DNA of 64,000 bases, taken from the NCBI GenBank assembly GCA_045114635.1, contig JBGUKY010000008.1, forward strand, positions 39,712 to 103,711, given 5' to 3'. Source of the stretch: Candidatus Enterousia sp. (GTDB lineage: Bacteria > Pseudomonadota > Alphaproteobacteria > Rs-D84). The position numbers were made by a program, and so were the translations under genes. Each line of letters begins with the position of its first letter. The stretch's first letter is position 1. This document shows positions 27,931 through 30,198 of this stretch, in pieces. The notes under the pieces were generated by a model, which was not told where the DNA came from, did no database searches, and saw only the letters and a program-made list of their open reading frames with translations.

Positions 27931-30198
27931 ATGGCAGTAAAGTTCAACATTTTCTCGAATAGTGGTTCTGGCAAAGGTCTAAAGATCTTTGAATCAAGCG
28001 CATACAAAGAACACGAGCAAGCGCCAATGGCCCGTAATTTCTGGAATATGCGTTGGAATGTTGGTGTTTGGATTATATGTGCCATAGTATTTGGATTGTC
28101 TTTTGCTGTGGAACATGTATGGCGCTATGGTTGGGGCCCTGCCAGTGAATATTGGGTAAAAATATATCTGGAAAACCTGTTGATGACTTTCGGATTGTCT
28201 GCGATTGCAGAGGTTCCATATTGGATTATTCGCACATTTCAACATCCTGACATCGCGTCCATTACACCATTGCTTCCAATATTTGCATATTATTTCTTGG
28301 CCGACGACACATTGAAATCTGAATTCAATCCACATGGCAAAGATAATTATGACGAAAAATCCGCCCGCAAGGCAACTGCCGATGATATTAAACAAATGGG
28401 TCAAGATCCTAAAAACAAAGAAGGATTGTTCAATGGATTTATGATGGTATTGGGTTATTTTAAATATAAAAGCAAACAAACACCATTAATGTTTGACGAA
28501 AGTTTATCTGCGCTTTGTTTAGCGCCTCCAGGAACCGGTAAAACCGCAGGTGTCGTTGTTCCAACAATTCTTGATTGTGATAATGTATCAATGATTATCA
28601 ATGACCCGAAACCCGAATTAAAACAAAAAACATCTGGGTATCGTGCGACTGTTGGTCCTGTGTTTATTATGAATTGGGCTGGTCAAGATGATCCTGAACG
28701 TGGAATATATTATCCATCGTGGAATCCATTATCACCTGACCATGTTCCATATAATCCAGAACAACGCGATTTGTATATAGATTCAATTTGTAAAGTATTG
28801 GTGCCTGACAGCAAATCTGCGACAGCAGATCCACACTGGGCAAATACTGGACGCGCTGGATTATCCGGTCTTGTGAACTTTATAGTATCCAAGGTTGAAC
28901 GTGCCCGCGCAGATGATTACTTCTATACACGCATCAACAATGGTACACTGAGCAGCGATGATGCAACCGTGCTTGGTGATTATTATTTATCAATGATGAA
29001 TGATCCAAATGCATATGCGGCATATTCTCTTTTACAAAAAGGTGAATTAAACACAACAAACTATGTTCATGTTGGAACATGGGATCATATTCCAGACGCT
29101 TGGCGTGGCAAAGAAGCATCTTTTTCAATGATTCTTGATTGGCTTACTTCAAGTCAGGTTGCGATTGCCGAAGGAATGGAAGAACGCAGAAAACAAGGCG
29201 ACCAGATGGTTATGATGGCCGACCCAATGAAAGATTTATTATTAAATGCAGTTGAAGAAGCCCGCAGATATGCCTATGCGAATCGTTCAGTATCTGAACT
29301 CACACAACTTGCTAACACACCAGATAAAGAACGCGGATCTATCCTTTCAACAATGATGGAAGGTTTGGCAATATTCCGTAACGCTGCTGTTCGTAACAGA
29401 ACAAGCCATTCTGATTTTCACTTTGCTGATTTACGTGGTATGAAAGATCCACGGGACGGAAAAATAAAACCTGTTAGTGTGTATTTATCTATTAATATGG
29501 TCGATGCCCAGGCATTGAATCCTATTACCGCTATATTTATTGAATTGATGTCCAGTTATTTGTTAGCACACAACACAGATCAGGTTGTAGATGGGATTAA
29601 AATGGGGCCGTATCCAGTATTGTTCGTTTTGGACGAAATGCCAAAGATGCAAAAACTGGATGCCGTTATCCAAGGACCCGATCTTGGGCGTGGACAAAAA
29701 GTATCTTATTTGATTATTGGTCAAGACATTCACCAAATAAGCGAAAGATATGGAAATGATGCCGCATCTACTATCATTTCAACAACAGCTGCAAAAATCG
29801 TAATGCGCCAAAACGACCCAGAAACAGCACGAAGATTTTCACAAATGATAGGTATGAAGAAAACAAAAAAGATAGAAAAGAAAGATGACAAAGAAGTAGA
29901 AGTACCAAAAGAAGAACTTCTTTACAGTGAATACGATATTATGAAATTAAAACCTATGAAACAAATAATTATTTATCAGGGTTGGTACCACAGACCAATA
30001 GAGGCAGATCAAGAATGGTATTTCCTTAACAAAACACCTGTTCAAAAGAAATTACACGACAAAGTACTTATGGGTGAATCTTCTCCGTTACCAGAGTTTT
30101 TAATTCCATCACATCATGCTATCATGGGATACGAAGGAACCCCGCGCGTTATGGATCCAAATACAAAAGAAATAAAAATATTGGAACCTTTGCATTAA
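27931..30198 (+). CDS. VirD4/TraG-family type IV secretion coupling protein (T4CP) homolog
   Basis: N-terminal TM helices, Walker A 'LCLAPPGTGKTAGVVVPTIL', Walker B 'PVLFVLDEMPKM' and 'YLIIGQDIHQI'. It has a large helical insertion and is 755 aa. Confidence 0.8.
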   Translation: MAVKFNIFSNSGSGKGLKIFESSAYKEHEQAPMARNFWNMRWNVGVWIICAIVFGLSFAVEHVWRYGWGPASEYWVKIYLENLLMTFGLSAIAEVPYWIIRTFQHPDIASITPLLPIFAYYFLADDTLKSEFNPHGKDNYDEKSARKATADDIKQMGQDPKNKEGLFNGFMMVLGYFKYKSKQTPLMFDESLSALCLAPPGTGKTAGVVVPTILDCDNVSMIINDPKPELKQKTSGYRATVGPVFIMNWAGQDDPERGIYYPSWNPLSPDHVPYNPEQRDLYIDSICKVLVPDSKSATADPHWANTGRAGLSGLVNFIVSKVERARADDYFYTRINNGTLSSDDATVLGDYYLSMMNDPNAYAAYSLLQKGELNTTNYVHVGTWDHIPDAWRGKEASFSMILDWLTSSQVAIAEGMEERRKQGDQMVMMADPMKDLLLNAVEEARRYAYANRSVSELTQLANTPDKERGSILSTMMEGLAIFRNAAVRNRTSHSDFHFADLRGMKDPRDGKIKPVSVYLSINMVDAQALNPITAIFIELMSSYLLAHNTDQVVDGIKMGPYPVLFVLDEMPKMQKLDAVIQGPDLGRGQKVSYLIIGQDIHQISERYGNDAASTIISTTAAKIVMRQNDPETARRFSQMIGMKKTKKIEKKDDKEVEVPKEELLYSEYDIMKLKPMKQIIIYQGWYHRPIEADQEWYFLNKTPVQKKLHDKVLMGESSPLPEFLIPSHHAIMGYEGTPRVMDPNTKEIKILEPLH

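Follow-up and report, generated by a model that had tools for sequence, protein, structure and literature searches.

A VirD4-type coupling protein and the probable, chromosomally dispersed type IV secretion system to which it belongs in Candidatus Enterousia and the order Rs-D84

A stretch of 64,000 nucleotides from the genome of Candidatus Enterousia sp. (assembly GCA_045114635.1, contig JBGUKY010000008.1, positions 39,712 to 103,711) carries on its forward strand, at 27931..30198, an open reading frame (ORF) of 755 amino acids (aa) that encodes a genuine VirD4-type type IV coupling protein (T4CP), an identification on which Pfam families, P-loop motifs, a structural model made with AlphaFold2 (AF2) and a Foldseek search all agree. 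Here we refer to the whole stretch as the window and count positions from its first letter. The original prediction, made from the letters of the window, had described the gene as an orphan T4CP embedded among housekeeping genes, belonging either to a type IV secretion system (T4SS) scattered around the chromosome, as in the rvh system of Rickettsiales, or to an ATPase recruited to another role. It is the first of these that we encounter: partner genes lie on three other contigs of the same genome, are co-conserved across the order Rs-D84, and occupy separate sites in a closed chromosome of a congeneric species. Candidatus Enterousia and its order are widespread in the guts of humans and animals, and do without the tricarboxylic acid cycle, respiration and standard transporters in genomes of about 0.9 Mb (PMC12306168). 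The word "secretion" is not found in that paper, full-text searches yielded nothing that pairs Rs-D84 or RF32 with type IV secretion, and a T4SS has apparently not been described previously for Rs-D84.

Three Pfam models of T4CPs match the 755-aa protein, all above their curated cut-offs: T4SS-DNA_transf (PF02534; 3.8e-49, 168 bits against a cut-off of 20.1), TraG-D_C (PF12696; 2.8e-19, 69.7 bits) and TrwB_AAD_bind (PF10412; 1.1e-18, 67.8 bits), the first two being those by which the original prediction had proposed to check its assignment. The full-length architecture that it read is likewise present, with intact motifs. The Walker A motif or P-loop, APPGTGKTAGVVVPT, begins at aa 198 (APPGTGKTA, aa 198-206; 28522..28548, forward strand), and Walker B, LFVLDE, spans aa 564-569 (29620..29637, forward strand; "LFVLDEMPKM" from aa 564); in an alignment of 20 diverse family members K204 is invariant and D568 nearly so. 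At the N-terminus, a Kyte-Doolittle scan finds one strong transmembrane helix (aa 42-62; 28054..28116, forward strand) and a weaker second hydrophobic helix (aa ~110-128; 28258-28314, forward strand), which coincide with helices 23-66 and 114-129 of the AF2 model. This model, built from a 20-sequence alignment, has a predicted local distance difference test score (pLDDT) of 82.4 and a predicted template modelling score (pTM) of 0.76, with long helices within aa 23-129. When it was searched with Foldseek, the top 38 matches were chains of Cagbeta and TrwB, each with probability 1.00; the best were Helicobacter pylori Cagbeta (8DOL; E 3e-17, target-normalised TM-score (TMt) 0.64) and TrwB (1E9R/1E9S; E ~1e-11, TMt ~0.7). 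A family sequence profile against the PDB ranked them in the same way (Cagbeta E 3e-14), whereas phmmer with the single protein matched no PDB sequence, so that the family profile is required. The T4CP thus shares with Cagbeta and TrwB a fold consisting of a RecA-like nucleotide-binding domain and an inserted all-alpha domain (AAD), but at an identity of only 14-16%. DotL/IcmO of type IVB systems, considered for its size and long AAD, was rejected as a relative, its matches (profile E 0.0024, Foldseek 3e-6) being much weaker than those of Cagbeta and TrwB. Against the equivalog and subfamily models of NCBIfam (Agrobacterium VirD4, IncP/Ti TraG, F TraD) the protein scores 18-127 bits where the cut-offs are 250-900; since it falls below all of these thresholds, it belongs to a separate, new subfamily with no characterised member.

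What sets this subfamily apart is found in the AAD, which occupies aa ~297-490 (28819..29400, forward strand) as delimited by DSSP on the AF2 model and by the lengths of alignment segments. Plasmid T4CPs have a median of 120 residues between the alignment anchors (aa 297-470), whereas the Enterousia protein has 173; in a profile alignment the Enterousia T4CP has ~150 aa between anchors and Cagbeta ~96 aa. The original prediction had noticed a long helical insertion at about aa 330-500. Most of that region is in fact canonical AAD, but a real insert of ~55 aa does lie within it, at aa ~329-385 (28915..29085, forward strand), as seen in alignment with the nearest plasmid VirD4s. Every gut-clade member has 59-61 residues in the segment aa 341-400, and most plasmid T4CPs have only 9-15; the insert occurs in all members from Rs-D84 and from other gut Alphaproteobacteria and is absent from the VirD4s of Erythrobacter and Microvirga plasmids. 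It holds family-invariant residues (D329-Y330-F331, Y352, Y378, G382 and W384) and is modelled confidently (block pLDDT 89-97). The signature [ES]QAxANDYF overlaps the beginning of the insert and, when run against 185,579 species genomes, led to 111 confirmed T4CP relatives; the 80 of these that were kept are nearly all labelled as uncultured gut or rumen Alphaproteobacteria or as "proteobacterium", with one Limosilactobacillus label among them. Because VirD4 AADs are known substrate-recognition modules (PMC8740702), the ~55-aa insert may well serve as a lineage-specific docking surface. An insert of fixed length in such a domain defines a T4CP subfamily and allows a search for its substrates to be put to direct test.

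Within the window the gene stands alone, as predicted. No match to VirB4, TrbI, T2SSE-type or TrbL families or to relaxases (PF03432, PF03389, PF08751) occurs inside the 64 kb; the other ORFs that were looked at are housekeeping genes (gatCAB, thrS, rpoH, der, ftsK, secDF, mutL and one for a Xer-type recombinase), and among the ORFs inspected no mobile-element hallmark lies near the T4CP gene. Its composition, judged by eye in the original prediction to resemble that of its neighbours, is indeed ordinary (GC 0.391, z +0.8; GC at third codon positions (GC3) 0.308, z +0.9, against 533 genome ORFs). The label "orphan" holds for the window but not for the genome. In the source assembly (G000; 873 kb in 22 contigs, 89.7% complete), where a family search of the whole assembly finds the T4CP in single copy, Pfam identifies further T4SS genes at three other places, each on its own contig and each amid housekeeping genes: VirB3 (99 aa) with VirB4 (804 aa) on contig C21 (82860-85577; VirB4 at 83163-85577); VirB8 (231 aa), VirB9 (488 aa) and VirB10 (802 aa, through TrbI) beside nusG-rplK-rplA on C22 (2545-7141); and VirB11 (331 aa), a T2SSE ATPase of VirB11 size, beside priA on C14 (21949-22944). 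The genome thus encodes VirB4, VirB11, VirB8, VirB9, VirB10 and VirB3, and the set is also conserved in G052, a congeneric species whose closed chromosome has 958,618 bp. Several of the proteins, and the T4CP itself, also match their counterparts in one contiguous operon of an Erythrobacter plasmid (VirB4 1e-125, VirB9 2e-47, VirB10 5e-15, VirB11 6e-67, VirD4 3e-102). VirB4 and TrbI/VirB10 each have a single family match in the source assembly; for VirB8 and VirB9 no separate search was made for further copies.

Several of these products have features of their own. VirB9 ends in a peptidoglycan-binding SPOR domain, and VirB10 (VirB9 and VirB10 together span 3260-7141 of C22) is much extended at its N-terminus and has a tail rich in Cys. 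The composition of VirD4, VirB8, VirB9 and VirB11 is ordinary; VirB4 is an outlier (GC 0.299, GC3 0.138, z = -3.2), yet is vertically conserved. Directly after VirB4 lies the gene for a secreted protein of 204 aa, here p204 (C21:85581-86195), with a HEDEH (HExxH-like) motif; it has no Pfam match, recurs at the same position in the closed chromosome with 62% identity, and could be either a metalloprotease or a part of the T4SS that has so far escaped recognition. Phage-like ORFs occur on the VirB11 and VirB4 contigs, at C14:28070-30001 and C21:90875-91798 (scaffold/capsid-like; tail-fibre-like).

The T4CP is inherited vertically, belongs as a single-copy gene to the core of these ~0.9-Mb genomes and evolves under strong purifying selection. 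Of 81 Rs-D84 genomes sampled, 80 carry one copy, including all 70 of high quality, across six families and 18 genera, and nearly every carrier has the reading frame intact. Homologues at 73-90% identity come from metagenome-assembled genomes (MAGs) labelled "Alphaproteobacteria bacterium" or Candidatus Enterousia; the identity of the T4CP declines from ~85% within a genus to 44-52% between families. VirB4 is present in all 81 genomes, and its identity declines in parallel. In a maximum-likelihood tree the Rs-D84 T4CPs form one clade (Shimodaira-Hasegawa-like approximate likelihood-ratio test (SH-aLRT) 99) that branches mostly by genus, then family, then order. For the closest pairs the ratio of nonsynonymous to synonymous substitution (dN/dS) is 0.06-0.07, at high dS (1.2-1.6). 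The chromosomal address of the gene is conserved as well. Its divergent neighbour, as the original prediction had noted, is rsmE (27218..27928, reverse strand; identified through Pfam Methyltrans_RNA in a relative), which probably starts at the ATG at 27877 and so leaves a 53-nt spacer; rsmE lies 30-58 nt upstream of the T4CP, divergently, in L009, L010, L014-L016 and G052, and the rsmE-adjacent site is the conserved location of the T4CP in the genus. All components could be mapped on the closed chromosome: VirB8-10 at 27-32 kb, five polytopic membrane protein genes at 65-71 kb, VirD4 with rsmE at 131-133 kb, VirB3-B4-p204 at 205-209 kb, a gene pair X/Y at 306 kb and VirB11 at 803-804 kb. The confirmed T4SS gene nearest to the T4CP is thus 72 kb away and none lies within 60 kb; a complete system or conjugative element just beyond the edge of the window, which the original prediction had named as a finding that would overturn it, does not occur there. 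Where T4CP and VirB4 share a contig, they are 70-280 kb apart (71 kb in G004, 72 kb in G052, 236 kb in G021 and 278 kb in G041).

How this scatter arose can be read from the T4CP of MAG Lab288P3bin38 (locus L069), which is sister to the entire Rs-D84 clade (SH-aLRT 98). At this locus there follow, all in one orientation, the T4CP, X (319 aa), Y (141 aa), a lipoprotein of 64 aa, VirB8 (Pfam 5e-19), VirB9 (7e-16) and a giant ORF of more than 1000 aa that runs to the end of the locus; the last stands at the position expected of VirB10, and in the portion that the locus covers Pfam finds only beta-flower repeats. The small lipoprotein is VirB7-like, with the motif KRSPCAC, and resembles a 68-aa KRTPCAC lipoprotein that takes the place of VirB7, immediately ahead of VirB8, in the Erythrobacter plasmid operon. 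The Enterousia homologues of these genes are found at three sites, namely the rsmE site (T4CP), window positions 42937-43879 (X and Y) and contig C22 (VirB8 and VirB9). Because L069 keeps in one locus the genes whose Enterousia homologues lie apart, an ancestral T4CP-VirB operon has been dispersed, and the scatter is the derived state. The X/Y pair of the window (42937..43879, forward strand; X 168 aa, Y 157/144 aa) matches its L069 counterparts by phmmer at 1e-8 and 2e-13, and Pfam has no match for X or Y, nor for the pair in L069. The AF2 model of Y (pLDDT 92) has as its top Foldseek matches 3D5P, 2ICG, Bacillus subtilis YobK (2PRV) and 2PAG, which share the SMI1/KNR4 (SUKH) fold. Polymorphic toxin systems typically have immunity proteins of this fold. 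A modelled SUKH-fold Y beside the T4CP and X in L069 hints at an ancestral toxin-immunity cargo with bacterial targets.

We consider it likely that the T4CP is the coupling ATPase of a vertically inherited chromosomal VirB/D4 (type IVA) T4SS that fell apart, as the genomes of Rs-D84 shrank, into four confirmed islets or more and that probably delivers protein effectors. As in characterised T4CPs, the N-terminal helices would hold the protein in the inner membrane, and it would form a hexameric P-loop ATPase; its enlarged cytoplasmic AAD would recruit substrates, which would then be passed to a channel powered by VirB4 and VirB11 and composed of VirB3, VirB8, VirB9 and VirB10, with probably VirB6-like and VirB2-like subunits. 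The substrates would most likely be effector proteins destined for a neighbouring cell rather than DNA, because no relaxase was found, the genes are dispersed, inheritance is vertical and purifying selection is strong. In genomes so tiny, a complete-looking T4SS that is kept so strictly, and under strong purifying selection, is a foremost candidate for the means with which these bacteria interact with a partner or prey cell.

Some observations weigh against this interpretation. No effector has been identified, and the effector domain XVIPCD (PF20410) is unmatched in the source assembly. The search for relaxases spanned three families and one cognate relaxase in a genome that is 89.7% complete. 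VirB1, VirB5 and VirB7 were not identified in this genome; a search of the assembly with the VirB7 motif [KRN]xPC[AGS]C gave no credible small lipoprotein and no "PCAC" motif. VirB6/TrbL (PF04610) has no Pfam match in the assembly either. The candidates for VirB6 are five polytopic membrane proteins encoded in an array on C22 (53409-60011), for which neither Pfam (E<=10) nor PDB profiles give a match and among which BLAST at 1e-5 finds no links; "hypothetical" plasmid ORFs tried as VirB6 references appear to be soluble and have no TrbL match. The candidate VirB2/TrbC pilin (128 aa, with a signal peptide and two hydrophobic helices; C8:11491-11877, reverse strand) lies outside the window, ~56 kb upstream of the T4CP, and its match to the Pfam model TrbC, at E 0.009-0.017, is below the cut-off.

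An unlikely alternative, though the best placed of those we considered, is that the machine transfers DNA, whether as a remnant or domesticated conjugation apparatus or in DNA release or uptake, with the T4CP as its DNA pump. The relatives of the protein lend this idea some weight. Outside the gut clades the nearest are megaplasmid VirD4s at 32-33% identity (E 1e-85, aa 115-724 aligned), from Erythrobacter aureus (NZ_CP031358.1; WP_115418087.1), Sphingosinicella (NZ_CP035502.1) and Microvirga (NZ_CP069357.1), each of which ends the contiguous VirB-VirD4 array of an alphaproteobacterial conjugation operon; two of the three have an annotated MobA/MobL relaxase next to them. The tree groups the plasmid clade with the Rs-D84 clade and a second gut-alphaproteobacterial clade, in a trichotomy that it does not resolve. 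In this second clade (L017-L098), ~65 of 78 loci have a gene for a pentapeptide-repeat protein 1-28 nt ahead of the T4CP and co-oriented with it (for example L097:8958-9995 and L098:8789-9979), and the two form a conserved module. Pentapeptide-repeat proteins often mimic DNA; the source genome has no homologue of this one. The plasmid systems differ, however, from that of Enterousia in that their genes are contiguous and accompanied by a relaxase, and in that their VirD4s are without the ~55-aa insert and the ANDYF motif. A whole-genome scan, which the original prediction had called for, recovered virB4 and virB8-11 but no relaxase: PF03432, PF03389 and PF08751 (MOBP, MOBQ and MOBF) are unmatched in the source assembly (89.7% complete; other MOB families were not searched), and tblastn with the complete MobA/MobL sequence from the plasmid system most like that of Enterousia finds nothing in this assembly or in the closed chromosome. 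The dispersal of the genes among housekeeping genes, their vertical inheritance and the lack of mobile-element hallmarks nearby also speak against DNA transfer.

We regard it as improbable that recruitment has given the T4CP a task outside any T4SS, for instance as a stand-alone membrane translocase of DNA or protein. In its favour the gene is transcriptionally isolated from the other T4SS genes and appears to have its own conserved promoter of leaderless type. An extended -10 box, TGATATAAT, is placed at 27915..27923 (forward strand), ending 7 nt before the ATG and with no Shine-Dalgarno sequence; motif and spacing are identical in seven relatives (L009, L012-L016, G052) whose spacers otherwise differ, and in a further genus (L106) the motif again precedes an ATG. 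This promoter geometry suggests that the T4CP mRNA is leaderless. Two co-oriented genes for envelope lipoproteins (397 aa, and 201 aa and LpoB-like by Pfam and NCBIfam) also follow the T4CP at 30218..32013 (forward strand), closed by a terminator at 32026-32058. They follow it in L011-L013 too, but beyond close relatives the linkage is lost, with accC/accB following the T4CP in L009 and L010; because the linkage is confined to the closest relatives, the lipoprotein genes are probably not part of the T4SS. Recruitment, the second alternative of the original prediction, is moreover unnecessary, because VirB partners (VirB4, VirB8-10 and VirB11) are all retained in the source genome, are co-conserved across the order, where VirB4 diverges much as the T4CP does, and are mapped in the closed chromosome; L069, in addition, still links the T4CP to VirB7-like, VirB8 and VirB9 genes. 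Less probable still is that the gene is a relic, now in decay, of an integrated plasmid or integrative and conjugative element (ICE), or a recent horizontal gain with its remaining genes just outside the window, for although T4CPs are usually borne on plasmids or ICEs and the NCBIfam VirD4/TraG equivalogs score far below their cut-offs, the frame is intact in nearly all 80 genomes at a dN/dS of ~0.06, GC and GC3 lie within the genome range, the rsmE address is conserved, and the closed chromosome holds no T4SS gene within 60 kb.

The scattered, effector-delivering VirB/D4 system that we favour invites comparison with the rvh genes of Rickettsia, in which virD4 lies in one islet with virB8-virB11, virB4, virB8 and virB9 are duplicated, and VirD4 has a dN/dS of 0.06 (PMC2653234). 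Both are chromosomal VirB/D4-type T4SSs of reduced-genome Alphaproteobacteria, held in islets among housekeeping genes; both are vertically inherited, have no conjugative function described and show a T4CP dN/dS of ~0.06, and the five-gene polytopic array recalls rvhB6a-e. The Enterousia system is nevertheless the more fragmented, with virD4 and virB11 each solitary, and has one VirB4 and one TrbI/VirB10 match in place of the duplicated rvh genes. It also belongs to another order, Rs-D84, with an extracellular gut habitat. Rs-D84 would be a second rvh-like "archipelago", outside the Rickettsiales and possibly independent in origin, of an arrangement until now known mainly from Rickettsia. In the bacteria-killing X-T4SS of Xanthomonas, the AAD of VirD4 binds the XVIPCD domains of effectors (PMC8740702). 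The two would share a chromosomal VirB/D4 system used for protein delivery and an AAD that acts as effector receptor, as we infer for Enterousia, and in L069 a gene with an immunity-like SUKH fold is linked to the T4CP. They differ in that the Enterousia assembly is without XVIPCD and its genes are scattered.

More tentatively, and with appreciably less confidence than in the coupling role itself, it is possible that Rs-D84 and the pentapeptide-coupled gut lineages share an anciently domesticated, relaxase-less VirB/D4 system with a private ~55-aa docking insert, and that the Enterousia machine, fragmented independently of that of the Rickettsiales, is the main organelle with which these bacteria exploit or attack their neighbours. 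The link of T4CP, X and SUKH-fold protein would then point to effectors of polymorphic-toxin type aimed at bacteria. If true, the delivery of such effectors would be in keeping with life in the gut as an epibiont or parasite.

Two further genes of the window deserve mention. A single ORF of 669 aa (44032-46041, reverse strand) holds the domains of the YbeY endoribonuclease and of apolipoprotein N-acyltransferase (LNT_N and CN_hydrolase), and represents either an unusual fusion or two genes read through. Next to it, a membrane-anchored protein of 545 aa (46053-47690, reverse strand) has a weak match to phage lysozyme (GH24; E 8e-5). Going by this match, the protein might act in remodelling the cell wall, and it is conceivable that it serves the T4SS in the manner of VirB1.

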